Shown: positions 3,598 through 22,631 of the stretch, one piece after another | How positions within the stretch are numbered: position 1 is the stretch's first letter | Layout: every line of letters begins with the position of its first letter | Source of the DNA: a virus | Taxonomy: Duplodnaviria; Caudoviricetes | Length of the DNA stretch: 24,884 bases | Reading direction: 5' to 3' (one strand) | Virus record (IMG/VR): IMGVR_UViG_3300025822_000030 | Coordinates: 1 to 24,884 of that record | Notes under the pieces: generated by a model | What the model was told of the DNA's origin: nothing | Databases searched by the model: none | The model's input: only the letters and a program-made list of their open reading frames with translations | Program-made: the position numbers and the translations under genes

Positions 3598-3615
3598 TGT
3601 TTGCGAAGGCAAACA
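3598..3615. promoter_or_regulatory. 7-bp hairpin/palindrome in the xerC leader
   Basis: TGTTTGC-GAAG-GCAAACA. Confidence 0.45.
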
Positions 3616-3651
3616 GCTTTACAAATCCGCATAAATAAAATAACAAAACAT

Positions 3652-4566
3652 ATGGCCGACAAAATTGTACTTTTTGAACTTTCTGAGTTTATTGAATACA
3701 TGAAAGTAGTCCGCCGATTATCACCTTACACGGTCCGTAACTATAAACACGCCATTGAGTTATTTTTTACCTGGGCTAAGAAGGAGGAGAAGGTCGCCCT
3801 ACCCTCTGAGGTTACCCGGCAACAGGCTAGAAGTTACTGCATTGAGGTACAGAATCAAATATCCCGCCGAACACTTAGGCATCATATTTCGGGCCTCCGT
3901 ACCTTTTTTACTTTTTGCCGGACTCGTAAGTTTGCCACAATAAATCCATTTTTAAATATCGCTCTGCCCAAGCTTAGTAAGCCATTGCCCAAAGTTTTGT
4001 CTGAAGATCAGATGACTAAGCTGATGAAGCAACCGCCCGCCAATGAGCCGAAGGGCGTAGGAATAAAATTTAATTCATTGAGGGATTTGATGATTTTAGA
4101 GCTTCTTTATGCTGGGGGCTTACGAGTTAGCGAATTAGTTAGCATTAATTACGAGGATATTGATTTTGTTCGCTCAACTATAAAGGTAGTCGGGAAAGGT
4201 CAGAAGGAACGAATGGTAGTTATCGGTAAACAGGCCAGCGACACAGTCCAAAAGTTTAGGCATATGTTTGCCAAGAAATCGAAAAAGTCCGATCCAGTCA
4301 TTATAAATTCTTTCGGTAAGAGGTTTACCACTCGGTCGGTCCAATATCTGATTAAGAAGTATTTAAACTTCGCGGAGCTTCCGCATGATATCACCCCGCA
4401 CAAGCTTCGACATTCATTCGCTACTCACTTACTTGATAATGGTGCGGATCTTCGTGCAATTCAGGAATTACTCGGGCATTCAAGCTTATCGAGCACTCAA
4501 ATTTACACCCATGTTTCTAGTGCCCGGCTTAAAGAAGTCCACGGCCTAGCCCACCCAAGAGGATAA
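3652..4566 (+). CDS. xerC: XerC-like tyrosine recombinase
   Basis: N-terminal LS.YTVRNY, LELLYAGGLRVSEL (R), GKG.KER (K), TPHKLRHSFATHLL (HxxR), LLGH, TQIYTHV (Y), C-terminal AHPR; ATG at 3652 preferred to TTG at 3601. Confidence 0.9.
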   Translation: MADKIVLFELSEFIEYMKVVRRLSPYTVRNYKHAIELFFTWAKKEEKVALPSEVTRQQARSYCIEVQNQISRRTLRHHISGLRTFFTFCRTRKFATINPFLNIALPKLSKPLPKVLSEDQMTKLMKQPPANEPKGVGIKFNSLRDLMILELLYAGGLRVSELVSINYEDIDFVRSTIKVVGKGQKERMVVIGKQASDTVQKFRHMFAKKSKKSDPVIINSFGKRFTTRSVQYLIKKYLNFAELPHDITPHKLRHSFATHLLDNGADLRAIQELLGHSSLSSTQIYTHVSSARLKEVHGLAHPRG

Positions 4567-4570
4567 TGTT

Positions 4571-4816
4571 ATGGTTAATGACTTAGAAAGTTTTGAGGCA
4601 AAATTCCCAAAGTTTATAATTGGCGATACTGAAGATCGAACATTTGTTGTCCACCTCCACAGCCCTAAATTGATTGCCGAGATCATTGTGGCGGAAGATG
4701 GGAGCGAAACATTCGACCCCACTTTTATCGATCCTCCCGGTAATGACCCCGCCCTACTAGCTAAGTTAATGCGAGAGGTCGGAGATTTTTACATCGAGGA
4801 AATCGAGCGGGAATAG
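4571..4816 (+). CDS. Small acidic hypothetical protein (81 aa)
   Basis: Starts 4 nt after the xerC stop; PKFIIGD...FVVHLHSPKLIAEI. Confidence 0.75.
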   Translation: MVNDLESFEAKFPKFIIGDTEDRTFVVHLHSPKLIAEIIVAEDGSETFDPTFIDPPGNDPALLAKLMREVGDFYIEEIERE

Positions 4817-4817
4817 A

Positions 4818-7800
4818 TTACCGAAATCTTTCGGATAACTTAGCACCGGCACTTGCGGCTGGAGCCATGAATCGATTGCCAGGCATAGCGGGTGCTTGCT
4901 GTTGGATGCGATTGGCGGGTTGAGCCTTTGGTGCTTTGGGGTCTGAGGGCATGAATTGCTTAGAAGATTTATCCTCGGGACTCCATCCCCATTCGTGCAA
5001 GCTATTAGCTTCGGTAAATAATTCCGATGCTTTTACTTTTTTAGATAAAATATTGTAATTATCTCCACCAGCATTCCCGCTTTCTCCATGTAGTTCGGCA
5101 TATTCCCTAACAATAGTAACCCAATCATTTGGCCTAATTTCGTCAGCAAACTCAGGAACTGCTCGGTAAATAGTTACTTCCCCATCAGGGTTTCCATACA
5201 TTTCTTGTATAATTGCGATGCTTTTTGCATCTAAAATAGGATCACCTGTCCCATAATATCTTGCACCATTAGGTCCGTAAATGTCTGAAGGATACATATC
5301 TGTAACATCATGCAAAGGTGCTCCGTTATCTCGATCAGGAGCTAGATGGTATCCTCGATAATCTTCGCCATCTTTGGATGTAGGCATGAACAGCCTTTTA
5401 TATTGAATTTCTTTAGCCTGTTTTGCTCCGACTTGTTTCTTTAACTCACTAGCCGGCATAAAAAGAATATTCCTCTCCCCCGCATCGAAAGTCCCTCGGT
5501 TGCCGGTGGCCGATTTGATTTGTTCGGGGGAGAAAGCGACTATTTCGTCAATCCTTCCATTATCGAATTTTACAATAATGCCGTCATGCCCTCGTTCTTT
5601 TGCAGATTGAGCTAGAAACGGGTCACTTGCCGAGGTGCTTTTTACTATTAAGGGATTTTCTAAGCTCAGATATGAATCAATAATTATTTCATCATTTCCC
5701 TTGTTTATACTCTGCAACTTTTGATCGAGCTTGCTTTCAAATTGTTGTAGTTTTTTATATTCAGGACTGTTTAATCCTAAATCTATAGCCGCCATCATAG
5801 TAGAAGTCCCAAGCTGTTTTGCCTGTGCCTCGTATTCTTTTTGGAGGGCTAAAACTTCGGGGTCAGTTTTCTTTATTGCATCTTGGCTGTAAAGTCTTGC
5901 CTGTCCCTTTTTGGGGGTAAAATAAAAGCCTTCACCAAAGTCACCTTTATTTATCGTTTGGTATCGGTCTGCATCAAAGGCTGTAAACTTATCACTCGTC
6001 CCATGATAAACCACCAATGGCTCGCCGTTATCATCGACTACCTTGGACTTGCCGAACCACTTCTTAAAGTATGGCGAATCAATCCCCTTCTCATTCCATA
6101 GCTTTGCGGCCTCGGCCACCTTCCCCTTAGTCGCACCCGCTTCGGAGGCTGGCATAAAAAGTTTGTCGGTCACCGTGACATCGGCTTCATCGAAGATTAC
6201 ATAATTGAAATCGCCCTCGCCTTTGGATCGGGATGCTCCATCTAAATATTTGATGCCTGGTATGCCGGCTTCTTTTAATCGCTTGGAGATTTCAGCCTCG
6301 GGCATATCATCGAGTACATTATTGGTGATGTCTCGATAATCTTGTTCTTGTCGATATTGCCAAGTATCCTCGCCCTCCTGTTCCCGTAGGAACTTCTTGA
6401 GCTTATCCTGTACGCCTTTGGGCTGTTCGCCTAATGTCTTATCATAAAGCAGATACTCGTTCTCCTTGGGGGCTAGTTCGACTTTGTAGAGGGAGCCAGC
6501 TATAGTTACATCAGCTTCATTTTGATCTCTCAAAGTTTTTATGACTTGCTGAAACTCTTGGTATTTACCAGTAGGATAGTCACTAGGATTATTTTGTATG
6601 TCTTTTAGGCTAGACTCCATCCAACTTATTAAGTCTCTGCGAGCCGATGATTTATTCGAGTTAAGGGACATATAATTACCTACACCCATTTCATCAGCTA
6701 AGTAATCTGCCGCTAAATGCTTTATATTCGTGCTATCTTTAGCTTTGCCATCAAATAACCTGTTTTCCCCGTCTCTCGATTGCTTTCTGTAAAACTCTGC
6801 TACTTCCCTCTTCCCCGCAAAGTAAAGCCCATGCCCATAGGCCTGTGCGCCCTCGCCTGTTCCAATCTTCGAAGTTCTGAATCTGCCCAAGGGTGCGCCC
6901 GCTTCGGGGGCTAGGGTGTGCGGTGTGCCGTGGAAGGCGGGGATGAAGAGTTTCTGCCCACTTTCTAATTCGTTACGAATTTGATTAGCGGTGCGATCCG
7001 AGTCTCTAGATTTAGTAATATCCTGTGGGTTTATATATTCCCGCCCTTGGCTAAACTCCTGTCCGTTCTTATCAAATCCATAGAATGGACTCTGCTCGGG
7101 ATTATCTGCTACCCCTGAAAGCCGAGAGCCGTCTTTTAATTGGACTGGGCTTTTAAAGGTCCTGACTTGAGCCGATGTATCCCTTGAAGATTTTGGTCTG
7201 AAGTAACTACCAGGTGAACCTTCAAAGGTTTCGGTTGGCATGAAAAGTTTCTGAGCCTCGGGTGACATTAAATTAATGACTCTTTGCTCGTTTACAGGTG
7301 ATGCTTTTCCTGATCGTTCGGCATTAAATACTCGATCTAATCGGAATGTCTTTGTGGCTGGACCGAATGGGTTATGCTTTTTATTAATAGCCGCCATATT
7401 ATATCCGATTGCATCTAGCACTGGATTCATAGCAACTTGAGACTTGGTAATCCCACCATGCAAGGCATTTAGAAAGTTTAACTTCTTATTTGCGATTACT
7501 GGATCAGCATCTAGTCCTGTTCTGCCGTCAATGCCGTTGGCCGTATTCTGCCTATAAAGTGAAAATGCGTCCCAAACGGCATTGTCGTTACCAAATAATT
7601 CATCGTACATCCCGATTAAATCGTCAGGTAATTTCTTTGGCTGTCTTTCGCCTTTAAGAAATTCGAGGTTTTTCTGTATCTGCCCGACATCGTGAATACG
7701 GACAAGGATGTTACCCTGTGCGGTAAGCTCAAATCCGTAAGGCATCGTTGTACGAACTGCAAATGGTACGGCCTTGGGCTTTCTGCCTTGTGTGGCGGAA

Positions 7801-10800
7801 TAATATCCGATGAGCATACCCGCCCTTTCTCCATCTCCCTGTCTTAATGCTCGGGAGATTTCACGCAAGGCGGCTATTTGTCTAGGATGGATTGGTCCTT
7901 TGGCGAGTTGATCAATAACTGCCTCGCTGAGTGCTGGTAAGTCCTTGGCGAATGGCCTACCCTTGTCGTTGGTCTCGACATCGATTCCATTCTTTTGTAA
8001 TACATCTGCGGCATGATCTCCGGCGGCCTCGGATACTTTATTAGCTTCCGTTCCCGTCATGCGGATCGGATTACCGAGTGCGTCTTTTTCGATTTCTCCC
8101 GTCTGTGGATTAGTCTTATAGATTCCGCCTGTGTTTAATTTATCAACCACATTGGGGTTCTTCTGATCTTCAACTGTGTAAAGAGTTTCAAACTCGTCAT
8201 CGATTGGTTTCTTACCTTCAGTCTTACGAGTCTTTCCAGTATTCGGATCGGTAAACTCAGAACCTTCAATTTCTGCCTTCTTTAATCCTCGGACATCCTT
8301 GTAATACTTTTCAATTAAATTCTGTAGCTCGGGGATCTTTCGGAGTTTGCCCTTAAATAGATCAGTCGAAGTAATAAATTTTCCATCTGCATTGAGTGGC
8401 TGATTTAATTTAAGGAGAAAGTCACGGAGGAAAGACACTCCTGTTATTCCATCGATTGTTGCCTGTATAGCTTTGCCCGCTGGTCCTTGGTTGAGTGCTT
8501 TTTCCCGCTTACCGGTTAAAAGAAAATCCGCTCCCTGGTCGGCAAATATTTCTCTACCGATTTTTTGTGGATTAGCCTCGTAGTCAGCAACAGCTTCGGG
8601 GTCTAACGATGCATCTTTGCGAAGTCGATCCATGTAGATGTCTCGCAGTTCAATAAATTCATCAGTATAAATAACATTTCCATCTTTATCGTAGGATGCA
8701 AACTCTCCGGCAGTCTTGGTTTCCTTGTCCCCGAATAGTATTCGATTAACCATCGGAGTAAGTCCGTGGACTTCCATGAAGTGGGTAAGCTCATGTGCCA
8801 ATGTCCCCTTTAAATATCCCGAACCATTCGGATTATAAGACACCTCCATCGTTATAGGATCAAACTCGCCCTCCCCTTTAGTTGTCTGTTTAAATACGAC
8901 ATCGGGATGAGATAAACTGTATCCAGCAATTTGTGTGCGGATATGGGCGGGCATGGCATCAAATTCCGCCTGTTCGCTTTTCGTTAAATGCTCACGATAA
9001 TATTGAATATCTCCAATCTGTTTACTGTAAAGATCTCCTTTAGTCTTATAATTTTCGTACATCCCAGCACCCGCACCTAATGCGGTAAAGGGTGCGGACA
9101 TGATTGCTCCGGCAACCGCACCACTCGGCTGACCCGCAGATGCGACAAAGCCAATCGTTGCGGGTAGACTTGCACCGGCGGCCATCCCTTTGCCGAATCT
9201 GCCAAGTGTTTCGAGTGGTGTACCTAATCGCCCAACCGCACCGGCATTATCCAAGAAATTAGCAACCTTCTGAGTGGCATTCGATATTGTTGGGGCTTGC
9301 CCGATTTTCTCTCCACCTGGTCCAACTCTAAAAGGTTGTGCCGATGGATTTACCTCTTTTGCTGATGCCCTACTCCCTTGGGCAATTGCATCTTTTACTC
9401 TACTAGCTAATCCCTCGGGACTCGGTTTCATTAGGATATTAAATTTATCCATCGTTGCTCCAGCTAGTCCTTGGTCAGGAGTTGGGAGCATAGAAAGTCT
9501 GCGGAAGAATGGTGTATGATCACCCGTTCTTGCGAGGGTAAGTTCTGATCCGACTACTCGGGCATCCCTTGCAATGTTATCATATAAACTTAATGCTTTC
9601 GGACCAATAAATGTTGCTAGTGCCGCCACAGCCGCACCGCCACCTAAAGCATCTTGATCAAACGAAAATCCAGCCGCTGAACCCAAGCCCAATGCTGTAC
9701 CACTTAAATTCTTAAAGTTTTTATACCTTTGGCGGGCTGATTCAATAGTCACTTCTCTCCCAGCTTGCCGTTCAGAATTTATTATATAACGGATAGCGCT
9801 ATTTTCCGTCATAGAAGATAAGAACCTTCCAATCTTTGCGATAGTCGGTAATGATGCTCCAACAGCCGCACCAATTGGTCCCGCTACTAATGCACCAACA
9901 CTAGCACCGGCAATCTCAGGATTGAGCTTGGCCGCAGTGTTCGCAACTCTTCGGAGTTTGCTCATCTTGTCGGTTGCTTTTGTTGCCTCCTGGACTAATC
10001 CCATGCCCATCTTTCCGGCATCGGTTGACTGGTCGAAAGTTTCCATTGCCACCTTGCCGAGAGTTTCGGGTGAGGCTTTACCCATCAAACGAAGGTGAAG
10101 CGAATTGCTTCCATACTTCTGTAAAACTTTTTGCTGTTCTGCTAGTTCATCCGCCAACTTGGCAGACTCTTTTGTAATTCGAGATCGAATAAGAGCCTGT
10201 AAACTCTTGTTTGCTATATCTGTGGGAAGTTTCTGTAAAGTGTTCTGATACTTGGCAAGCTGGATAGTTTTTTGCTGAACATCTTGAATCGTTTTAAGCA
10301 TTCTACCTTTTAACCCGATTCTCATGGGTGCGGTAACTCCTTTAGCTAGAGTACCACCCGCCGCATTAAGCGGATCACCAACAACTTCAAAGGCTAATCC
10401 AATGCCCTCACTGGGTACTTGGAAGCCCGAACGGAGATCCTGTTCAAGTTGCGAGTCAAATGTCATAGATTCGGGTTCTATTCCGACTGTCCCCTTCAAT
10501 GCATCGACAGGATTATCCATCACCCATGCGGCAAACTCGGCGGCAGTTTCATACTCGTAATTTACCTTATCAAATCCGATTAAACTATTCACATAGCTAA
10601 GAACTTCCCCGTCATCCTCCTCGTCTAAAGTTAAATAGTTTGATAATGCGGCTCCGCCCCGAAGTAAGAACTCAGGTGTCTTCCATGCCCTAGCTGTACC
10701 CATTCCGACAGATGATTTTATATTGTCAGATGCGTAATCCATTGCGGCGGCTTTAACTCGGCCACGGGCATCTTTATTCTTTTGATAAAATGGCATCCCT

Positions 10801-11285
10801 GTCTGCTTGAGTGCTTCGGAGATTGGATCAAATCCTAAATCGCCTAAACTTTCTTGGTTATCTAGTAGCCCAAAAAGTCTTTTTCCCGCTTCCCTAAATT
10901 GCTCTATATTTTCTGTTTTATCGTAGGATACTGCTTCATCATCTAGCTGAAGAACTTTAGAGTATGGGGAAGTTAGTGGGTCAATCCTTGTGCCTAAGTT
11001 ATCAACCATATCCCCGAGGGTAGAAAGTAATCCAGGTGATTCCTCATCTTGAATCGTCTCAGGGTCATCATCCACATCTAATATCGGACCGGACGGAGTA
11101 TCAAAGAATCCATTCCGATAGGCGGATATTTTAGCCTCGTTTGACAATTGCGATGCACCGTATGGCCGCACCATCGTCTTAGCTGCTTCCCAAAAATGCT
11201 GATCGGATGGTTCCTCGCCATCCTCTAATTCTAGTATCCCTCGGACCTGTGGTAGCTCGGGGTGACTAATTTCGTACTTAGCCAT
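4818..11285 (-). CDS. Giant polyvalent internal virion/ejection protein with zincin motif and ADP-ribosyltransferase-like modules
   Basis: 2155 aa; last of three ejection-position genes; Gly/Ala hydrophobic stretches; HELTH; FHGT..GLYFA, YHGT..GFYFT..EIVAF.PEQIKSA and YRAV..WVT..HEWG modules. Confidence 0.85.
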   Translation of the reverse strand: MAKYEISHPELPQVRGILELEDGEEPSDQHFWEAAKTMVRPYGASQLSNEAKISAYRNGFFDTPSGPILDVDDDPETIQDEESPGLLSTLGDMVDNLGTRIDPLTSPYSKVLQLDDEAVSYDKTENIEQFREAGKRLFGLLDNQESLGDLGFDPISEALKQTGMPFYQKNKDARGRVKAAAMDYASDNIKSSVGMGTARAWKTPEFLLRGGAALSNYLTLDEEDDGEVLSYVNSLIGFDKVNYEYETAAEFAAWVMDNPVDALKGTVGIEPESMTFDSQLEQDLRSGFQVPSEGIGLAFEVVGDPLNAAGGTLAKGVTAPMRIGLKGRMLKTIQDVQQKTIQLAKYQNTLQKLPTDIANKSLQALIRSRITKESAKLADELAEQQKVLQKYGSNSLHLRLMGKASPETLGKVAMETFDQSTDAGKMGMGLVQEATKATDKMSKLRRVANTAAKLNPEIAGASVGALVAGPIGAAVGASLPTIAKIGRFLSSMTENSAIRYIINSERQAGREVTIESARQRYKNFKNLSGTALGLGSAAGFSFDQDALGGGAAVAALATFIGPKALSLYDNIARDARVVGSELTLARTGDHTPFFRRLSMLPTPDQGLAGATMDKFNILMKPSPEGLASRVKDAIAQGSRASAKEVNPSAQPFRVGPGGEKIGQAPTISNATQKVANFLDNAGAVGRLGTPLETLGRFGKGMAAGASLPATIGFVASAGQPSGAVAGAIMSAPFTALGAGAGMYENYKTKGDLYSKQIGDIQYYREHLTKSEQAEFDAMPAHIRTQIAGYSLSHPDVVFKQTTKGEGEFDPITMEVSYNPNGSGYLKGTLAHELTHFMEVHGLTPMVNRILFGDKETKTAGEFASYDKDGNVIYTDEFIELRDIYMDRLRKDASLDPEAVADYEANPQKIGREIFADQGADFLLTGKREKALNQGPAGKAIQATIDGITGVSFLRDFLLKLNQPLNADGKFITSTDLFKGKLRKIPELQNLIEKYYKDVRGLKKAEIEGSEFTDPNTGKTRKTEGKKPIDDEFETLYTVEDQKNPNVVDKLNTGGIYKTNPQTGEIEKDALGNPIRMTGTEANKVSEAAGDHAADVLQKNGIDVETNDKGRPFAKDLPALSEAVIDQLAKGPIHPRQIAALREISRALRQGDGERAGMLIGYYSATQGRKPKAVPFAVRTTMPYGFELTAQGNILVRIHDVGQIQKNLEFLKGERQPKKLPDDLIGMYDELFGNDNAVWDAFSLYRQNTANGIDGRTGLDADPVIANKKLNFLNALHGGITKSQVAMNPVLDAIGYNMAAINKKHNPFGPATKTFRLDRVFNAERSGKASPVNEQRVINLMSPEAQKLFMPTETFEGSPGSYFRPKSSRDTSAQVRTFKSPVQLKDGSRLSGVADNPEQSPFYGFDKNGQEFSQGREYINPQDITKSRDSDRTANQIRNELESGQKLFIPAFHGTPHTLAPEAGAPLGRFRTSKIGTGEGAQAYGHGLYFAGKREVAEFYRKQSRDGENRLFDGKAKDSTNIKHLAADYLADEMGVGNYMSLNSNKSSARRDLISWMESSLKDIQNNPSDYPTGKYQEFQQVIKTLRDQNEADVTIAGSLYKVELAPKENEYLLYDKTLGEQPKGVQDKLKKFLREQEGEDTWQYRQEQDYRDITNNVLDDMPEAEISKRLKEAGIPGIKYLDGASRSKGEGDFNYVIFDEADVTVTDKLFMPASEAGATKGKVAEAAKLWNEKGIDSPYFKKWFGKSKVVDDNGEPLVVYHGTSDKFTAFDADRYQTINKGDFGEGFYFTPKKGQARLYSQDAIKKTDPEVLALQKEYEAQAKQLGTSTMMAAIDLGLNSPEYKKLQQFESKLDQKLQSINKGNDEIIIDSYLSLENPLIVKSTSASDPFLAQSAKERGHDGIIVKFDNGRIDEIVAFSPEQIKSATGNRGTFDAGERNILFMPASELKKQVGAKQAKEIQYKRLFMPTSKDGEDYRGYHLAPDRDNGAPLHDVTDMYPSDIYGPNGARYYGTGDPILDAKSIAIIQEMYGNPDGEVTIYRAVPEFADEIRPNDWVTIVREYAELHGESGNAGGDNYNILSKKVKASELFTEANSLHEWGWSPEDKSSKQFMPSDPKAPKAQPANRIQQQAPAMPGNRFMAPAASAGAKLSERFR
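4863..7250 (-). repeat. Seven dispersed FMP-type peptide motifs delimiting C-terminal modules
   Basis: F-M/I-P/A codons at 7236-7244, 6939-6947, 6150-6158, 5454-5462, 5382-5390, 4947-4955 and 4863-4871. Confidence 0.85.
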
Positions 11286-12610
11286 TACGGAGCAATCGGT
11301 GTGAATATACCGCCACCTGGTAATGTACTTGCCTGTGGTACACTTGGATCTTGTGGGGGTTTTCCTTGTGGTTGCCCGTTCTGAGGTAATCTTATGTCAG
11401 GGAATATTACCTCCTCAAAAAGTAAGTTAGCTTGGTCCGGTGCGAGATTTCGATTTTGCTTATTAATTGTTCTGTCAAACTTCTGCCTAGTTTGGCGGAT
11501 CAAGGGATCAATAGATTTACCTCTAGCATCTACTATTTTTTTAGCTTGGGTAATAAAATCTTGTCTTTGTTTTTCGTCAAGTCTTTGGCCTTTTGACCAA
11601 TTATTAAACATATTCCTTATTCGATCGGGGACACCGGCGGCGTTTTGTGCGTTAGCAAACTCCCCTTCTCTAACTGTACTACCAGGATCAAGAACTTTCA
11701 TGTATTGAAAAATTAAACTAAGGTCACCAGCGGCTGACGGATTTTCTGCCGCTGAACTTATCGTATTATAAGATATAACGACATTTTTATAATCTTGTAC
11801 TTGTTTATTTTTATCGAAATTAGCACTAAGATCGTTTAATGGCTTGTCGAATAATTGCCTTGTTGTCTCTTCCTTATTTTTAAGGTCAATTGCATCTTTT
11901 GGGTCTATTCTATTTGACTCTGCTAAATCAGCCTCCGCCTTCTGCAAACTCATAAATCGACTACCAGCAAGCACAGGATCAAGATTTTGCTCTTTAGCAA
12001 ACCGACCAAAATCAGATGAGCCAAGTTCTCCGCCTAATACTTTGGGTGCTTCATCCCTTTGAAATTCTAAAAATCGATTTCTTGCACCTTGATCCCCGCC
12101 TAAAGCGAATAGGCCAGGCTGTGCTTGGTTAAAGTCTTCTACGACTGCTGGATCGGGTGTTTCAGCTAAAAGGGCTTCTGCCATGCCCATCTGATTTGCC
12201 TTCAACTCATCTGCCTCTGCCTGAATCAAATCTTTTTCCGATTGTATCTGTGCGGCTTTATCTCCAGCAATCTTTTGCGCACTTCGCCGGTTGGCCGCCA
12301 TTTGGGCAATTCGGCCTTCTTCGATCTTCATCTGCTGTTCAGCACCTTTTTTACGCTGATATTCTTTTTGCAGAAATGGATTCTTGGCGATTGCTTTGGC
12401 ATCTTTTTCGGAGACTCCCTGGTTCATCAGATAGCCCGTCATTTCTTCTGCCCGTGCTTTCTTTTCTCGCCCTTCGATGAATCCTTTTGCTACCTGGTTA
12501 AGAGCATTGCCGAATGCCATATTTGCATTCGCATTTGCCTGTCCCGCCCTTTCATAGGCCGAGGTGTCGATTTTCATTAAGCCCGCCTGAACTGTATCTC
12601 CAATTGCCAT
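11285..12610 (-). CDS. Putative internal virion/DNA ejection protein
   Basis: Position; helical Q/A/K-rich sequence; GDLSLIFQYMKVLDPGSTVREGEF motif; stop overlaps the next start. Confidence 0.65.
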   Translation of the reverse strand: MAIGDTVQAGLMKIDTSAYERAGQANANANMAFGNALNQVAKGFIEGREKKARAEEMTGYLMNQGVSEKDAKAIAKNPFLQKEYQRKKGAEQQMKIEEGRIAQMAANRRSAQKIAGDKAAQIQSEKDLIQAEADELKANQMGMAEALLAETPDPAVVEDFNQAQPGLFALGGDQGARNRFLEFQRDEAPKVLGGELGSSDFGRFAKEQNLDPVLAGSRFMSLQKAEADLAESNRIDPKDAIDLKNKEETTRQLFDKPLNDLSANFDKNKQVQDYKNVVISYNTISSAAENPSAAGDLSLIFQYMKVLDPGSTVREGEFANAQNAAGVPDRIRNMFNNWSKGQRLDEKQRQDFITQAKKIVDARGKSIDPLIRQTRQKFDRTINKQNRNLAPDQANLLFEEVIFPDIRLPQNGQPQGKPPQDPSVPQASTLPGGGIFTPIAP

Positions 12611-12614
12611 AATT

Positions 12615-14009
12615 TTATCCTCTGCTTAGATATCCACCGCCTAATGATCCAATCGCACCAAATAAACCCTGTGCCATTCCGCTCGCCGCATTTTCTCGGG
12701 CGGCGTAATTTGCTGAGTCGTAGTTCGCTTTATTAGCATAACCTTGCATACCAATATTTACTCCAGCATCGGGATTTATCCGAGTTACTGATTCCTGTGG
12801 CATTCCGAAAAGTGCGGACCTTTCTCCAAATCCTTGGGCGGTATAATTCTGTCCACCTCGAAGCATCGCCATTGGATCGACTGAGGTTGATTTATTTAAA
12901 TTAGATGCATAAGATCCGAGGCTTTGTGCTTGTTGGCGATTCTGTCCGATAATATCTCTTAAATAATCCTCTCGGCTCATGGCCTCAGCGGCAATGCCCG
13001 CATTATCCATTCCCCTACCCCTCGCCACTAATCCTTCACGGGCGGACTGAGTGGCTCGCCGTCTCATTTCGGGCGATAGGTCAGTCATTTGTGCTTCATT
13101 GAAAGCCTGATCGGCTAACTGGTTAGCTTGTTGTGTACGAGCTTGCATGAGTGGATCGGATGCACGATAAGCCTGATTCATATCCGCACCAAATCGACCA
13201 AGCATAGAAATATCTGACCCCGCCTGTCTTTCTGCCATCCTCGCCCCGAAATCCTGTGACCGCATAGCATTCGATTCTGCTAGGCTAGCCATCGGATCGG
13301 CGGCTCGTTGGGCAAGACCCATCTGTAAATCTTGATACTGTGGGTCGTACTTTTGGCGTACCCCAAGCATTTGATCTTGAAGCCCTGAGTCGGCCATTGC
13401 TCCGACATAATCTCGGGCAGATTTGCCGACATTAAATTCGGGTAAGGGAGGGGGTGCTTTTCCTCCTCCAAAGAGTTTCTGCAAGAAGAAGGAAGGTACT
13501 CCCGAGGAGTTGACCGGTTCACCCGCTCCACCGGCATCCTTTAGCATTTGTGCTTCTTGTTGATTAATGTACGCTAATCCTTCACCTTCCGGTGCGGCTG
13601 TGTTAAGAAGCATGGCCGCCTGTTTGAGCGGATCTTCGGGGGCGAAGGAAACTATTCCATCTTTTGTCATTTTACCCTTTGCACCGGAGAGCATGAGAAG
13701 TTCCCGTTCGATCGGATTGATGTACGCTAACGATTCCCCGCTTGGCGATTGTTCGGCTAAATATTTTATTACCTGGTCTTGCGAAATATCCTGATTAAAA
13801 TGCTCGGGGTTGGTGTCGGGAAAATGGCTTGGGTTTGTACGCCGACGCATTTGAACATGGGTGTCCCCGTATTGGTGGGAAAGCGGGTCTTTTGAGCGAG
13901 TTACTTGCTGGGGAGCTATTTGGGCCTGTTGTACTAGATTTAAACGCATCTCTGCTTCTTCTGCAATTTCCTCTTCCGATGGGCCGATTAATTTTTTTAT
14001 GAAGTCCAT
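12615..14009 (-). CDS. Putative DNA pilot/ejection protein
   Basis: Q/A/M/G-rich helical body, C-terminal glycine-zipper GLFGAIGSLGGG, duplicated LAYIN module. Confidence 0.65.
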   Translation of the reverse strand: MDFIKKLIGPSEEEIAEEAEMRLNLVQQAQIAPQQVTRSKDPLSHQYGDTHVQMRRRTNPSHFPDTNPEHFNQDISQDQVIKYLAEQSPSGESLAYINPIERELLMLSGAKGKMTKDGIVSFAPEDPLKQAAMLLNTAAPEGEGLAYINQQEAQMLKDAGGAGEPVNSSGVPSFFLQKLFGGGKAPPPLPEFNVGKSARDYVGAMADSGLQDQMLGVRQKYDPQYQDLQMGLAQRAADPMASLAESNAMRSQDFGARMAERQAGSDISMLGRFGADMNQAYRASDPLMQARTQQANQLADQAFNEAQMTDLSPEMRRRATQSAREGLVARGRGMDNAGIAAEAMSREDYLRDIIGQNRQQAQSLGSYASNLNKSTSVDPMAMLRGGQNYTAQGFGERSALFGMPQESVTRINPDAGVNIGMQGYANKANYDSANYAARENAASGMAQGLFGAIGSLGGGYLSRG

Positions 14010-14010
14010 A

Positions 14011-14763
14011 TTAAGTCTTTATTATGTAATTTAAAATGATGGTCGGCTGAACATTGTTGTGGGCTCCGCCTCCTCCTGTTGAAGCGGTCGAACCCGAACC
14101 CGAGCAAACATTATTTGTGTTTCCCCCCGAAGTCCCGAAATCGTCTGATGTGGATGAGTCAATGATTAATCCGTGGGTATGAGCGGGCAGTTCTGCGGTA
14201 CTGAGGGTGTGCGTTTCTGCTCCTCCTGATCCGCCTAAAACATCTCCGTCAACTCCACCAGTTAAACCAGTTAATCGATTAGCAGATGCTCCGCCCATAT
14301 CATCCTGTCCGGCAATTACTCGGCCTCGAAGGTCGGGGATATTGAAAGTCGATGAACCATCTCCCGATCCGTAGGTGGTTGCCAACAGTCCAAAAAGAGT
14401 CGAATAAGTGGAGCGTGAAATTGCCGCACCATCACACAATAAATAACCTGTTGGGGCAGATGAACCGGCGTAAGGCATAATTGATGCCGTTGGCATGAGA
14501 ACACTTACTGCTCCAGCATCTAGCTTGGCGGCTGTTACTGCTCCATCTTGAATCTTTGCGGTGATGACGGAATCCGTGGCCAACTGGGTCGCTGTGATTC
14601 CGGCATCCTTAACTTTTAATTTACTCGAACCTAAAGTAAGGGTCGAATTGTCAGTCGTATCTGCCGCCGAGGTAAAATACGCTTGGCCGACAATATCAAT
14701 TAATTTCTGTGCGGTGACTTGATCGCCACTCGCAAAACTCTGTCCTGTTGATAATACTGCCAT
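14011..14763 (-). CDS. Tail fiber-like protein with phage tail collar domain
   Basis: IMPYAG..APTGYLLCDG.AISRSTY..LF......YG.GDG..TFNIPDLRGR, GGAETHTLS..ELPAHTH, HNNVQP..ILNYIIK. Confidence 0.9.
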   Translation of the reverse strand: MAVLSTGQSFASGDQVTAQKLIDIVGQAYFTSAADTTDNSTLTLGSSKLKVKDAGITATQLATDSVITAKIQDGAVTAAKLDAGAVSVLMPTASIMPYAGSSAPTGYLLCDGAAISRSTYSTLFGLLATTYGSGDGSSTFNIPDLRGRVIAGQDDMGGASANRLTGLTGGVDGDVLGGSGGAETHTLSTAELPAHTHGLIIDSSTSDDFGTSGGNTNNVCSGSGSTASTGGGGAHNNVQPTIILNYIIKT

Positions 14764-14773
14764 AATGTTTCTC

Positions 14774-17215
14774 CTATGAAATTGAAGTTGTGCTTCTGTC
14801 TGTTACTCGGGCATCTATCTTAACTGCCCGTAAAAATGGTCTGCCCACTGTGGGCTTAAAGTCTGTCTGTATTCCGAATCCTCTTTTTCTTACTCCCAAT
14901 CGGATTGAGGAATCCTCGTTTGCCGGTAAAGTTGAACCTAGCAGAGTGGAGATCGATGTGGCCGAAGATGTGGAGTCGGGATCTTCAGTTATGAAACTGA
15001 TATCACCATCGGAAAGTCCTTGATCTGAGCTTTTTATATGTAGCTCGGAACGGGAAAACATTTTCCTATCGGCAGTATCGGCATCGTATTGGCGAGTGGT
15101 GCATTGGCTTACTACATCGATGGTTTCGGGAACCGCCTGACCGGCGGACATACTTACCACATCCCCTCCATCTGCTCCATCGACTTTGTGGATGCCGCCT
15201 TCTTCAGTGGTAAGATAGAGGGCATTCTGCGAACCTTCTTTGCCGACTATTAATTCACGAATCGCAAACTCGGTTGAGTTAACTGTGTCGATGCTTTCAA
15301 AGCCTCCATTAAGGAAGCTGTACACGATTATAGTGTTAAGCTTAGTTGCATCTCCGCTCCCTGGAACAATGTCTAATGGTAACGCCAGCCAGTAACGATT
15401 ATCGAAGTAAACTCCACAAGACAGATGAACATAATCCTGATTAATTCGGTCGATAAAGGGCTGGATGGTTTCCGAGATTGGAGTGCCTGTTCCCCGTAAA
15501 TTATAAGCGTCAAGAAATTCGACTGAATAGATACCTTGGTCAGATAAAAACATTATTTGATTTGCTACCTGGACTACTGACTTTCTTGCCGAGCATCCGA
15601 TTTCTGTGGTTACCACATTGGTCGAAACATCAGCAAGAGATCCGCTTATCCCACTCATTAGATGGATCGATTTTCGATTAAATACTACGAGCGAATCCTT
15701 AGTGAATGGAGTAAGCTGGACCAAGTAATCGCTTTGCCCGGCAGAGGGTCTAAACTGATTGCCAATCACATCCACTGTATCAAAATCCATAATGTCAGAA
15801 CTTACTATCTCATCCCTTATTCCTCGGTCCGTAGGATTAGTTTCCGAGGTGTACCAGTAAGGCATCCAAAGCCTTCGTTCGTGAACGATTCCCCAAGGTG
15901 CGGCGGGTTGGTGAATGTAGCCTTTTCCGACTGCTAGGGGTTTATTAACTGTTAAAGTTTTAGACTGGCCAATTGAAACATTTGCGACTTCTAAATTAAA
16001 CTGAAATTGATTTGCATTCGGGACATTGGAAACACGAGTTTTTTGATTCGTAAAGAGGTCGAATGGGCTTGTACCTGACTGGATGGTTAAATCATCCCCA
16101 GCGGACAGGCCGTGAGAATTTATATCCATGGTTACCACTCCGTCCTGTGCGACTGTTGTGGTATCAGTCAGGTAGAGCGGTGCAGTATAAGTTCCATTTG
16201 CCACTTTAGTGAAGTCTAAGAAAAATTCTACCTGTGCACCGGAAACATTAAAGGTCGTATTTTGGCTCGTTGCCATTGTAACTGTAAACTGATTTGTCGA
16301 TGCAGTGGCCACTTGGTAACAGTCATTTGGATTATTAGTCCAATTTCCTAGACCGGTTAAAGTAACATAATCATTAGCCGAGCGGCCATGTGCCGTGGCG
16401 TTTACAGTTATCGTCTGCCCACTTTGCGATGCCGATGAGATATCCACTCGCTGAACCTCGGGGCTGGCCTCGAGAGTTGTCTGACGAGTCCTAAAGATAT
16501 ACATCTTTCCGAGTCCCTGAGTCATTTGAACCGGTCCATCGACTGATTCCCCTCCAGCCTCATACCGACACTTGAAAAGTGCCGAGTCTTTCAGACGCAG
16601 AATGATACAGGTGGTATCAGTAGCGGTAAAAATATAATCATCGTTATTCGATGTGGCATCCGAAAAGACTGCCGATCCGAATACTTCGTTTACCCCGTTA
16701 TCGTTTAGGGTAAAATTTAAAGTTGTACCTATGGATGTGCCGGAAGCTACCACGGAAGTATTCCCTACACTTTCACCCTTTACTGTAAAAGTGGTATCCG
16801 CTCCGCTATTGGCAAAAGTCAGAGTCTTAGTTGTAAAATTGACCGAAGCTAAAGTTTGAGTGCCATCGACTGATGCATCTAGGTCATCGATGTGGAAATC
16901 TTCACCAGGTATAAAAGAAAGCGAAGGTGTAGTGCTTAAAATTAAGGTTACTACATTGCTCTGCCGTTGGGCCGATAAAATAATGTAAGGCAATCGGATC
17001 GCATTTTCACCCGAGGTAATCGATCCAAACAAAGTCGATAACCCTTTGCGAGTCTGCCAAGTTCCATCCTTATTCATTCGACCATTCTTCGACAATGCTA
17101 CCTCACCAGGCTTTAACTGGTTAGGGCGTAGACGGGCATTCATCCGCAGAAAGAAAGTATCCCCTTCCGATGTGAATGGATCGTCTAGTTTGCCGTATGA
17201 ACGATACCGGCTCAC
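14774..17215 (-). CDS. Tail nozzle / tail tubular protein B-like
   Basis: 813 aa beta-rich; N-terminal N.RM...G.WQTRKG; propeller-like IGC.A..SVV......FLS..GIY; GTG start overlaps the upstream stop. Confidence 0.7.
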   Translation of the reverse strand: MSRYRSYGKLDDPFTSEGDTFFLRMNARLRPNQLKPGEVALSKNGRMNKDGTWQTRKGLSTLFGSITSGENAIRLPYIILSAQRQSNVVTLILSTTPSLSFIPGEDFHIDDLDASVDGTQTLASVNFTTKTLTFANSGADTTFTVKGESVGNTSVVASGTSIGTTLNFTLNDNGVNEVFGSAVFSDATSNNDDYIFTATDTTCIILRLKDSALFKCRYEAGGESVDGPVQMTQGLGKMYIFRTRQTTLEASPEVQRVDISSASQSGQTITVNATAHGRSANDYVTLTGLGNWTNNPNDCYQVATASTNQFTVTMATSQNTTFNVSGAQVEFFLDFTKVANGTYTAPLYLTDTTTVAQDGVVTMDINSHGLSAGDDLTIQSGTSPFDLFTNQKTRVSNVPNANQFQFNLEVANVSIGQSKTLTVNKPLAVGKGYIHQPAAPWGIVHERRLWMPYWYTSETNPTDRGIRDEIVSSDIMDFDTVDVIGNQFRPSAGQSDYLVQLTPFTKDSLVVFNRKSIHLMSGISGSLADVSTNVVTTEIGCSARKSVVQVANQIMFLSDQGIYSVEFLDAYNLRGTGTPISETIQPFIDRINQDYVHLSCGVYFDNRYWLALPLDIVPGSGDATKLNTIIVYSFLNGGFESIDTVNSTEFAIRELIVGKEGSQNALYLTTEEGGIHKVDGADGGDVVSMSAGQAVPETIDVVSQCTTRQYDADTADRKMFSRSELHIKSSDQGLSDGDISFITEDPDSTSSATSISTLLGSTLPANEDSSIRLGVRKRGFGIQTDFKPTVGRPFLRAVKIDARVTDRSTTSIS

Positions 17216-17916: not shown

Positions 17917-18146
17917 TCGCCAGGAGGTTCGTCAGATGTCCACTCGTCAGTTGCTAGAATAGTGAGCATCTCGGAATGAGTGTATTCGGTCTTACCGCTC
18001 AGAAAGGATGGTTGTTCGCCTTCGTACTTAACGAATGTTTGTGTACCGTCTAGTGAGTAGCGAAGTTTATCTGCATCTGCTTGTAATACCTGGCTAAAGT
18101 CAACCGAACTAACTTCAGATGCGTCTATAATTACATATGTTCTCAT
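17913..18146 (-). CDS. Small phage tail-region protein (77 aa)
   Basis: Coupled by ATGA overlaps; VDFSQV....LRYSLDG...FVKYEG..PSFL. Confidence 0.75.
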   Translation of the reverse strand: MRTYVIIDASEVSSVDFSQVLQADADKLRYSLDGTQTFVKYEGEQPSFLSGKTEYTHSEMLTILATDEWTSDEPPGE

Positions 18147-19033
18147 GGCTTATTAATACTGTATGTTGCTCCTCCGTTACCTGTTCCGTCATTCGTACCA
18201 GCATTCTCTGCATTGACTACTGTGCCTATAGTACCTCCGTTTGTAGGACTTCCGCCACCACTTACAGTATCATTGCCTTCTCCTATTCTGTACCAATTTG
18301 TAAGGTTTGCTGATTTATCATAAGTACCAGCATTAGATGTTGGATCGATTGGCAGTCCGTTATTGTATAAACTAGAAGCATCATCGCCATCTAAAGAAGC
18401 ATTCCAAATAGCTAAATTATCTAACAGTCCGTCAAAATAATTAGTACCCCAACCTGCTTTAGCTATAGAACCATTATTACCAGCTGTTGATTGAGTGGTG
18501 GAAGGGACTGAAGAGGGGGTAGTAGCTACTTGTGAACCGTCAAAATACAAAGTAATAGAACTTCCGTTATAAGTTCCTAATACATGATGCCAAGCATCTG
18601 TTGATCTGTAATCTGTCGGCGAAGCTAAGTTAAGTATACAATTATTAACTGAACCATCGATACCCCATCTAAGTTGGGAGGACGAGTTTAAATAAAATGC
18701 TACACGATTACTGGTACTTGTGCCCGAAGAAAACGGAACTTCTACAGTTGATCCAGCGTAGTCTCTCAAATTAATCCAAAAACCTACAGACAATGTCGCT
18801 GCACTATTAAATCCTGATAAAGTACCCAAGGAAATGTAATCATCTGTGCCGTCAAACTCAGCACTAAACGAGTTAGATACAGCACTTATAGACACGCCGT
18901 CACTATTATACACCCGCCAATTCGTGCCGTCATAGATGATGTAGTTTCTCGTGTCTGTTTCAAAGTAAGCATCACCTGCCGAGGGACTACCTGGACGAGT
19001 GGATGAAGTGATTGATGGTATTGTTGTTGGCAT
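18143..19033 (-). CDS. LamG/concanavalin-like lectin-domain virion protein
   Basis: FDGTDDYI, SVGFWI, WHHVLGTY.G....LYFDG, YFDGLLDNLAIWN..L. Confidence 0.85.
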   Translation of the reverse strand: MPTTIPSITSSTRPGSPSAGDAYFETDTRNYIIYDGTNWRVYNSDGVSISAVSNSFSAEFDGTDDYISLGTLSGFNSAATLSVGFWINLRDYAGSTVEVPFSSGTSTSNRVAFYLNSSSQLRWGIDGSVNNCILNLASPTDYRSTDAWHHVLGTYNGSSITLYFDGSQVATTPSSVPSTTQSTAGNNGSIAKAGWGTNYFDGLLDNLAIWNASLDGDDASSLYNNGLPIDPTSNAGTYDKSANLTNWYRIGEGNDTVSGGGSPTNGGTIGTVVNAENAGTNDGTGNGGATYSINKP

Positions 19034-21602: not shown

Positions 21603-22631
21603 CTAAACTATTGAACCAAGCGCGCGTGGGTTGGATACGCGAATCGTAGCCATACACTCTGTAAATGCGCGTTTCCCAGCACCGTTGTCAGGAAGATCCT
21701 GAACGGTCATGCCTTCCAAGAACTTCAAGGAAACAGTGTCATCAGATGGAAGGAGATATCCTCGATCTGTGTTAACAGTTCCCAGTGCTGTACTTGTTCC
21801 ACTTGCTCCAGCATCCCTACGCCCGTTCCACAAAGTAGGGATTATGTCCACTACACCATAGTCCGAAATGTACTGGACCACTGATAATTTCAAGATACCA
21901 TCCTTAACATCCTGGTTAAAGTTAAAGTCACTGTTTGCAGTGGTGGATCTCGTATAGTCCGTTATTTTATTAACGCAATTTGGGCCGGCATATAACTTAA
22001 AAGAGCCTTTAGAACCAGCGGCAGTGTAAACAGCCTGAAGTAATCCACGGAAAGCAGATTCGGTCAAACTTGCAAGACTTACACGAGAACCACTTACTGC
22101 ACGGAAACCTTGTTTTAAGGTTGTGTCGAAAGTGTTACCAGTTGCAGTTGGGTCAGACCAAATTCCAAGTCCGCACATCGTAGCTCCAGCAGAACCTGAG
22201 CCAGCGGCTTGATCGTTGTTTGAAGCGATTGCCACTTCAAGGCTGTTCTTCAACTGAATTAAAGATTTTGCAGTTGAGGCCGCAAAGAGAGATCCACCAG
22301 GAGCAACATCAACCATTTCGGCCTGACGAGAAACTGCGAAGATATCCCTAAGTGTTGCCACCCGGTTACCTAGACGAGCGCGGCTATCAATTAAGTTAGC
22401 GGCATTCGACAGAGTAATATCTACACCGTCTGCGTTTGTTGCGGCACTTGAGCCGGCGGGATCAGCGAGTGAATCAACTAACCATTCATTAAGAGTCGCT
22501 TTGGGAGCGGCGGATTGAGAAATCGTGCTGTAAATTGGAGTCTCTTGTGGAGAAACCGTTTTCATCACATTTTCTAAATTTTCGCGTGAGCCCTTGGTAC
22601 TCAACACGTTATACGAAGTTGCTATAGCCAT
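21603..22631 (-). CDS. Major capsid protein (DUF5309/SU10-like)
   Basis: G.RENL......VSP.ETP, EWLVDSL, R.GN, K.LE signature; downstream of scaffold; followed by a terminator. Confidence 0.85.
   Translation of the reverse strand: MAIATSYNVLSTKGSRENLENVMKTVSPQETPIYSTISQSAAPKATLNEWLVDSLADPAGSSAATNADGVDITLSNAANLIDSRARLGNRVATLRDIFAVSRQAEMVDVAPGGSLFAASTAKSLIQLKNSLEVAIASNNDQAAGSGSAGATMCGLGIWSDPTATGNTFDTTLKQGFRAVSGSRVSLASLTESAFRGLLQAVYTAAGSKGSFKLYAGPNCVNKITDYTRSTTANSDFNFNQDVKDGILKLSVVQYISDYGVVDIIPTLWNGRRDAGASGTSTALGTVNTDRGYLLPSDDTVSLKFLEGMTVQDLPDNGAGKRAFTECMATIRVSNPRALGSIV

Follow-up and report, generated by a model that had tools for sequence, protein, structure and literature searches.

A repeated aromatic-Met-Pro motif marks the junctions of an exchangeable cassette array in a giant phage polyvalent protein and matches the end of its zincin-bearing body

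The stretch of DNA analysed here (24,884 nucleotides (nt), hereafter the window; IMG/VR record IMGVR_UViG_3300025822_000030) is a partial genome of a podovirus-type phage, as judged from its capsid protein (PF17236), tail-collar and tail/nozzle-type genes in Pfam and PHROGs, and marine metagenomes hold DNA nearly identical to it. The last gene of its tail/ejection block (4818..11285, minus strand) encodes a giant phage polyvalent protein of 2155 amino acids (aa). In this protein and its homologs, a constant body and a constant cap enclose a variable row of cassettes which is exchanged at or near a short repeated motif, typically Phe-Met-Pro (FMP). The feature is real and its modular exchange is shown, and proteolysis at the motif is likely from the sequence patterns described below. 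In the reading favoured here, which is held with a little better than even confidence, a zinc-protease body is followed by exchangeable cassettes that each end in the body's own terminal peptide (x-[FY]-M-P), and the protein's own zincin would cut there, probably between Phe and Met, freeing the cassettes.

The Phe residues of the motif are located at aa 1348 (QKLFMP), 1447 (QKLFIP), 1710 (DKLFMP), 1942 (NILFMP), 1966 (KRLFMP), 2111 (KQFMP) and 2139 (NRFMAP), giving five FMP, one FIP and one FMA at spacings of 99, 263, 232, 24, 145 and 28 aa. This reproduces, on the 2155-aa open reading frame (ORF), the seven motifs listed in a first-pass annotation of the window, as well as its remark that FMP is absent from the first ~1340 aa: there is no copy before aa 1348. 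Five FMP were observed for 0.10 expected, an equal over-representation of any tripeptide was reached in 0/1000 shuffles, and only two further [FY]MP matches occur in the six frames of the window. All copies lie on the minus strand. Six are junctions: motif 1 (QKLFMP, 7236..7253) between body and cassette 1, with contig joints and loose ends at 7244-7250; motif 2 (QKLFIP, 6939..6956); motif 3 (DKLFMP, 6150..6167); motif 4 (NILFMP, 5454..5471); motif 5 (KRLFMP, 5382..5399); and motif 6 (SKQFMP, 4947..4964) between the last cassette and the cap, with loose contig ends at 4955. The seventh (RFMAP) has its Pro one position later, belongs to the conserved terminal cap and was noticed as a join point only in homolog P0001.

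A search with the body returned 59 homologs, of which P0014 (truncated) and P0059 (distant) were dropped before segmentation. When the remaining 57 were split at the motif, their segments fell into 42 clusters, 34 of which exceed 70 aa in length, and 43 cassette orders were seen, with arrays of one to seven cassettes and the same cassette next to many different neighbours. The body region of P0001 is 100% identical to that of the window, with a different array behind it. Module content is variable among homologs rather than fixed. Breakpoints were taken as the ends of pairwise homology blocks, detected without using the motif, after removal of tails at least 90% identical (53 reduced to 46 in one set, 94 to 82 in the other). 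In the set of 46 tails, 79 of 409 block ends fall within 3 aa of the motif (null 4%); 208 ends are more than 30 aa away from it, and 186 of these lie inside ADP-ribosyltransferase (ART) cassettes, at fixed points of varying inserts. In the set of 82 tails, ART spans contain 558 of the 1028 block ends. The other 470 are enriched at the motif, 156 of them lying no more than 3 aa from it (null 6%), 293 no more than 10 aa (null 17%) and 386 no more than 20 aa (null 32%). At the DNA level, 15/82 block ends are within 12 nt of the motif (null 5.5%).

Metagenome contigs from eight runs provide an independent view of the same process. Two joints in one set of these contigs and three replacement joints in another lie at motif codons (4952-5467, 6941-7244 and 6170-7244), the first of these positions with 68 letters on its short side. 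For 3 of 15 other contig joints, motifs lie no more than 13 nt from both ends; 8 joints are inside ART cassettes and 4 are off by 20-80 nt. Since the contigs were matched at 85% likeness and mostly have short sides, they are supporting evidence only. Block ends and contig joints together place exchange at the motif itself, in the shared arms that flank it and, separately, within the ART domains. Gain and loss of cassettes in frame at the motif is in this way shown by orders, block ends and contig joints, but exchange is not confined to it, in view of the ends inside ART spans and of many crossovers up to ~20 aa off.

The body (aa 1-1345) consists of a Gly/Ala-rich N-terminal part, a zincin and a domain of ~400 aa. 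The zincin-like metallopeptidase domain (aa 770-940; 8466..8978, minus strand) carries H831-E-L-T-H835 (8781-8795) and the third ligand E912 (8550-8552). A full-library search with the body found 222 homologs, and the counts for distant bodies given here are among the 150 matches listed, 134 of which matched over more than 430 aa. In 129 distant bodies H831, E832 and E912 are conserved in 100% and H835 in 96%, and HExxH is present in 93/94 FMP-array proteins, the exception being an N-terminal fragment. The zincin domain had 0 matches in a PDB sequence search and none in Pfam; an Atlas search with it gave LPD23 in 18% of one cluster, a weak lead, the other clusters being unnamed. The conserved ~400-aa domain (7251..8465, minus strand), for which the Atlas search also gave weak leads only, ends shortly before motif 1 in N-L-M-S-P (aa 1338-1342; 7260-7277), at a place where distant bodies have N-x-x-P as their end; N-L-M-S-P is likely to be an altered copy of the body's ancestral terminal motif. 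The N-terminal 769 aa (8979..11285, minus strand) include four mildly hydrophobic Gly/Ala-rich stretches (aa 454-472, 542-560, 697-743) and have no family match in Pfam or PHROGs.

The junctions copy the end of the body. A permissive pattern finds x-x-x-P at the end of 129/134 distant bodies, with N-x-x-P in 94 of these. Among the 95 proteins whose tails are long, the junctions track the variant present at the body end, and 0/10000 label permutations reach the observed excess, a figure inflated by kinship. The tails of M-type bodies (52 proteins) hold 163 M-P for 24.6 expected, and those of R-type bodies (15 proteins) hold 51 R-P for 16.6 expected and only 5 M-P for 4.0. The tails of L-type bodies hold 28 L-P for 12.9 expected, but also 15 M-P for 5.0.

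The same dependence on the host protein is seen outside this family. Where the window protein has NILFMP, 105 other large ART-PolyVal proteins have different motifs (I-R-F-S, I-T-E-S, I-R-K-S, I-L-x-Q and more), which are 64% identical within a protein and 24% between proteins, compared with 27% and 27% for a control 12 residues upstream; the ART anchor pattern is absent in 6/111 proteins of this set and in 15/120 of the short ART set, and those rows were left out. Two other shared cassettes end in the motif of their host protein in 12/25 flanks (permutation null 5.8, p 0.003). A weak test, the recurrence of the ART-tail dipeptide elsewhere in the 105 unrelated polyvalent proteins, gave 275 occurrences for 212 expected, with 2/105 proteins at p<0.01. 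HExxH accompanies aromatic motifs in 37/50 proteins and charged motifs in 11/32, in samples that are not independent. In phage F116, gp60 combines two HExxH with an I-L-F-S that follows its ART, a motif of the aromatic type. Three proteins (P0064, P0162 and P0145) have a longer junction unit, a Glu- or Lys-type motif followed by [WF]D...HPR or DQPR, in ~8-10 repeats; this unit is possibly a head-protease site plus a targeting peptide, and the assignment of Glu- and Lys-type motifs to prohead proteases is a lead.

A register for the predicted cut is suggested by short ART proteins. Among the 105 with the anchor pattern, 11 stop exactly at +9, that is, after the residue equivalent to the motif Phe, and none stop at +0 to +8 or at +10 to +11. 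The stand-alone ART of Dickeya phage JA11 (JA11_190; L037:8950-9627) stops at the same place, three residues into the junction motif. These stops suggest that the position of the free C-terminus matters, and a predicted cut between Phe and Met-Pro would recreate the C-terminus of the short ARTs. A structural model of aa 1700-1973, built from 94 sequences, has a mean predicted local distance difference test score (pLDDT) of 83.6 and a confident ART core up to ~aa 1939. The three motifs that it covers score 40-66 by block and form coil or the end of a helix, on the edge of the ART fold and not in its core, although the shallow alignment at the flanks of the model may depress pLDDT around them. 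A single-sequence fold of the whole tail (mean pLDDT 35.9) was not used, and a complex prediction between body aa 775-1336 and the junction peptide aa 1696-1730 scored 0.00 and was counted neither way.

In the reading favoured here, the protein would be packaged and ejected whole or nearly so, after which the zincin would cleave the body's terminal peptide together with every junction copy, so that ADP-ribosyltransferases and other cassettes would be set free in the cell. Packaging and ejection, the cleavage itself and its register, its attribution to the zincin and its timing after cell entry are all inferred. A newly acquired cassette would be kept only when its tail has come to match the local motif, so that the motif would spread to each newcomer, and the 12-15 bp coding the motif, with the shared arms, could act as short homologies for ordinary phage recombination, with no need for a site-specific recombinase. 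Autoprocessing by the zincins of polyvalent proteins has been proposed previously (Iyer 2017; PMC5512222, section 8).

Several observations weigh against this scenario. Twenty bodies have 35 aa or fewer behind the terminal motif, so that there is no cassette to release and only a short tail to trim. One clade (5/134 bodies) with H-E-x-x-E keeps the body-end motif and has 0-4 junction copies per protein, its motif density being somewhat below that of the sister clade (9 in 3072 aa versus 19 in 3723); the Glu of H-E-x-x-E could still bind zinc. Relatives with a tail protein 93-96% identical to that of the window have at least four other body types, with zincins 22-30% identical or undetected and the same FMP motif, and tight sequence co-evolution is therefore absent. 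Motif class fits a tree of the zincin as well as a tree of the downstream domain (27 and 28 changes, null 60), and its covariation with body columns singled out no active-site position; the two domains are therefore not separated as readers of the motif. HExxH is missing from 13/50 polyvalent proteins with aromatic motifs. The N4 virion RNA polymerase (vRNAP) has such a domain and is packaged uncut (PMC13434306), and such a domain therefore need not cut its own chain before packaging. The register is weakened by a second peak of stops at +14 (12/105 short ARTs, mostly of one sequence type); several +9 proteins are related or on short contigs, and the stop pattern could simply be the structural end of the domain. 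Finally, shared ancestry means that the homologs cannot be counted as independent samples, and some of the proteins entered the set through the zincin region.

The H-E-x-x-E clade comprises P0354, P0358, P0369, P0382 and P0397 and offers a natural case for judging whether both histidines are required by the zincin. The relatives with other bodies include L045, L047, L059 and L070, in which the body is less than 30% identical or undetected, and because phages with near-identical tail proteins differ in this way, the whole zincin body is itself swapped as a block.

An alternative, judged unlikely, is that the motif is bound and not cut. The N-x-x-P segment of the body would pack in a body groove or bind a packaging partner, and its copies would tether or pace the cassettes during packaging and ejection. 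Such docking would account for a motif at the end of cassette-less bodies, where the following residues are partly conserved (P-x-G-x-P), for its survival in the H-E-x-x-E clade, for the downstream domain tracking the motif as well as the zincin does, and for the uncut state of packaged N4 vRNAP. It fits less well with short ARTs that stop inside the motif at the predicted cut, with the invariance of the catalytic Glu in 129 bodies, and with the charged motif variants of other polyvalent proteins, which resemble head-protease sites, cut after Glu with Ser preferred next (PMC5694885, PMC10052503).

Cleavage by another protease, from the host or another phage protein, with the zincin acting on the cell envelope or on host proteins, is considered more doubtful still. 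It would explain how one motif can be common to very different bodies in closely related phages and why some motif-bearing polyvalent proteins have no HExxH, and for the metallopeptidase of the phi24B giant protein a role at the peptidoglycan has been proposed in a preprint (10.64898/2026.04.10.717836). However, the motif varies with body lineage and copies the body's own end; no other protease was found among the scanned proteins of the window (Pfam and PHROGs, on a partial contig), and the scarcity of further [FY]MP matches in its six frames also speaks against this option.

It is very unlikely that the motif has no role at the protein level and is nothing more than a scar of recombination or a stretch of DNA microhomology. 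A 14-nt core is common to 25/43 KLFMP junctions, and their Leu and Phe codons are skewed relative to the gene background, as a scar might be expected to show. Across these 43 junctions, however, KLFMP is encoded in 16 ways and the Pro codons are evenly used (33/32/25/22 of 112), and in the window itself both Phe codons and all four Pro codons occur. The body-end motif is kept across bodies ~25% identical, the XerC-like neighbour gene is absent from nearly all relatives, and the skewed codons can be understood as a by-product of exchange through the site. This combination of synonymous spread and a common core fits peptide-level selection plus recombination through the site. Selection on the peptide had been proposed from the varied codons of the window alone, and it is strengthened by the finding that the motif follows the host protein and not the cassette. 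The array also differs from integrons and other site-specific cassette systems, with their linked recombinase and conserved DNA site, since the junction DNA varies synonymously. Internal translation starts at the motif ATG, by which cassettes would also be made separately, are highly improbable: Met is present in 175/203 distinct junctions and a purine-rich stretch lies upstream of one window copy (aa 1943), but close relatives have Thr, Ile or Leu instead of Met, Arg or Ser is used throughout whole lineages, and the other four window ATGs have no evident ribosome-binding site.

Returning to self-cleavage, a broader joint proposition, which falls slightly short of even confidence, is that polyvalent proteins are self-processing polyproteins. 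Their zincin module would end in a lineage-specific recognition peptide, copied at the C-terminus of each cassette; the cut would recreate the stop-codon end of stand-alone ADP-ribosyltransferases, possibly switching them on, and the tag would double as a recombination joint. If true, such phages would deliver, along with their genome, a payload of several effectors that can evolve. Ever since polyvalent proteins of phages were described in 2017, the question has stood whether they are cut, and at which sites. The present family supplies precise candidate bonds and a candidate enzyme in which a single residue (E832) could be mutated, and its lineages with M-P, R-P, L-P or S-P are natural specificity variants for swap experiments. 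The motif is also a practical way of splitting giant unannotated virion proteins into effector units, the 34 clusters longer than 70 aa from 57 proteins being mostly without a Pfam match. These units are candidate counter-defence or host-takeover enzymes that would be delivered before any phage gene expression.

The window array contains four full cassettes and a mini-cassette, all on the minus strand. Cassette 1 (C05, 99 aa; 6945..7241) has no assigned function, is present in 16/57 homologs and is missing from the contigs with joint 6941-7244. Cassette 2 (C03, 263 aa; 6156..6944; 24 copies in the 57 homologs) is ART-like (HGTPH...GLYF) with hypervariable inserts. Its profile matches that of cassette 3 with a probability of 84% (E 7e-6, over 49 columns); the His and Tyr motifs are present, the Asp is not evident and there is no Pfam hit. 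Cassette 3 (C02, 232 aa; 5460..6155) is an ART-PolyVal ADP-ribosyltransferase domain (Pfam PF18760, E 6.5e-23, above the cut-off) with the triad H1761, Y1789 and D1901, as in the H-Y-D clade, where His is on strand 1, Tyr on strand 2 and Asp on strand 5 (PMC5512222). Its best Foldseek match, a weak one, is to PARP/tankyrase (E 2e-4, TM 0.29). A 24-aa mini-cassette (C15; 5388..5459), defined by homolog segmentation, precedes cassette 4 (C16, 145 aa; 4953..5387), which has no assigned function, matches PHROG 2579 (labelled ParB C-terminal domain, E 1e-34) and shows no profile match to the ART cassettes. Both C15 and C16 are missing from the contigs with joint 4952-5467. The conserved C-terminal cap (44 aa; 4821..4952) contains NRFMAP (4860-4877) and ends in ERFR, as do 50/57 homologs; it forms a separate segment in 47/57. 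In L020, L049, P0013 and P0057 a large terminal module replaces it, and the cap is therefore not universal.

In both ART cassettes, hypervariable inserts (5540-6000 and 6280-6810) are swapped at constant positions within the domain; this further layer of mosaicism may determine target specificity. Mini-cassettes of 15-30 aa with a motif at both ends are also found in L018, L022, L026, L033, P0007, P0008 and P0026 and look like remnants of deleted cassettes. A GNAT-like cassette was found in one relative.

The giant gene lies downstream of, and on the same strand as, the capsid, tail-collar and tail/nozzle genes, and is in this sense encoded among virion genes. The major capsid protein gene (21603-22631) is upstream of the tail genes; gene context, Pfam and PHROGs place 441-aa and 464-aa ORFs (probable ejection proteins), the tail-collar protein and an 813-aa tail/nozzle-type protein within 11285..17215 (minus strand). 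The start of the giant gene overlaps the stop of the 441-aa ORF by one base (11285). From this position and by analogy with phi24B gp47, the giant protein is presumably packaged and ejected into the host. A protein with a concanavalin/laminin-G domain (18143-19033, minus strand) is found among the tail genes and is a possible receptor-binding protein. Behind the giant gene, a xerC-like recombinase gene (3601-4566, plus strand; NCBIfam 311.7 bits, below the cut-off) and an 81-aa ORF (4571-4816, plus strand), the next ORF downstream and variably present, occupy a variable slot. The xerC-like gene is present only in the window, its twin L029 and L070 (1/53 further loci); the L070 copy is 99% identical, yet L070 has a different body. 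Being absent from nearly all relatives, it is rejected as the shuffling enzyme and regarded as accessory. A homolog 45% identical to the giant protein (L096, JAYNZN010000059.1) comes from a contig of 6 kb assigned by binning to Opitutales, which hints weakly at a host among the Verrucomicrobiota; a single such copy is too little to name the host.

Among known systems, the likeness to MARTX toxins that had been drawn from the window sequence holds as an analogy only. MARTX toxins have a variable effector array in a constant frame and a built-in protease that would release the effectors (PMC6315884). The window protein likewise has a variable effector array between constant ends, but no RTX/MARTX repeats or cysteine protease domain were found in it with Pfam; a zinc protease stands in its place, the protein is phage-encoded, its target is presumably bacterial and release would be by the predicted self-cleavage. 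It may work like a MARTX toxin but is not one.

In Rhs and contact-dependent inhibition (CDI) polymorphic toxins, a conserved peptide borders a swappable effector, and one C-terminal toxin is swapped with its paired immunity gene. A conserved peptide marks the border of swappable effectors here too; the window protein differs in that it chains several cassettes in frame before a constant cap. Downstream, where such toxins would have an immunity gene, the next ORF (81 aa) is on the opposite strand and is not present in all relatives.

A further parallel is provided by prohead maturation in T4 (gp21), phiKZ and SPN3US (gp245), where short three-residue motifs direct the cutting of virion cargo (PMC5694885, PMC10052503). 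The Glu-type junction motifs of other polyvalent proteins resemble these cut sites. Prohead proteases, however, are encoded by separate genes, cut after Glu and mostly remove propeptides (same sources), whereas the window has repeated internal motifs of the aromatic-Met-Pro type, and no prohead protease was found there. Giant ejection proteins with a zincin motif, virion-packaged and with ejection proposed or shown, are known from phi24B (gp47; 10.64898/2026.04.10.717836), N4 (vRNAP; PMC13434306) and crAss-like phages (polyproteins; 10.1101/2020.03.07.982082). No repeated junction motif or cassette exchange is described in the cited portions of these accounts.

The closest known relatives are the polyvalent proteins of Iyer 2017 (PMC5512222), giant multidomain phage proteins combining a metallopeptidase (MPTase) with ART-PolyVal, for which architectural mosaicism was noted in a Helicobacter family. 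The window protein likewise joins several unrelated conflict domains: ART-PolyVal, a second ART-like cassette, the PHROG 2579 domain and the zincin motif. The passages of PMC5512222 drawn on here mention neither a junction motif nor a cut site or exchange point (0 hits for 'linker' and for 'shuffl'), the online files of that paper being a further source that may bear on the point, and no published account of repeated junction motifs in polyvalent proteins was found in a search that covered the subscription literature thinly. This case adds data on exchange at the population level, the agreement of the junctions with the body end, and a register for the predicted cut: compared with the polyvalent proteins in those passages, the junctions are defined, and they copy the protease body's own end.

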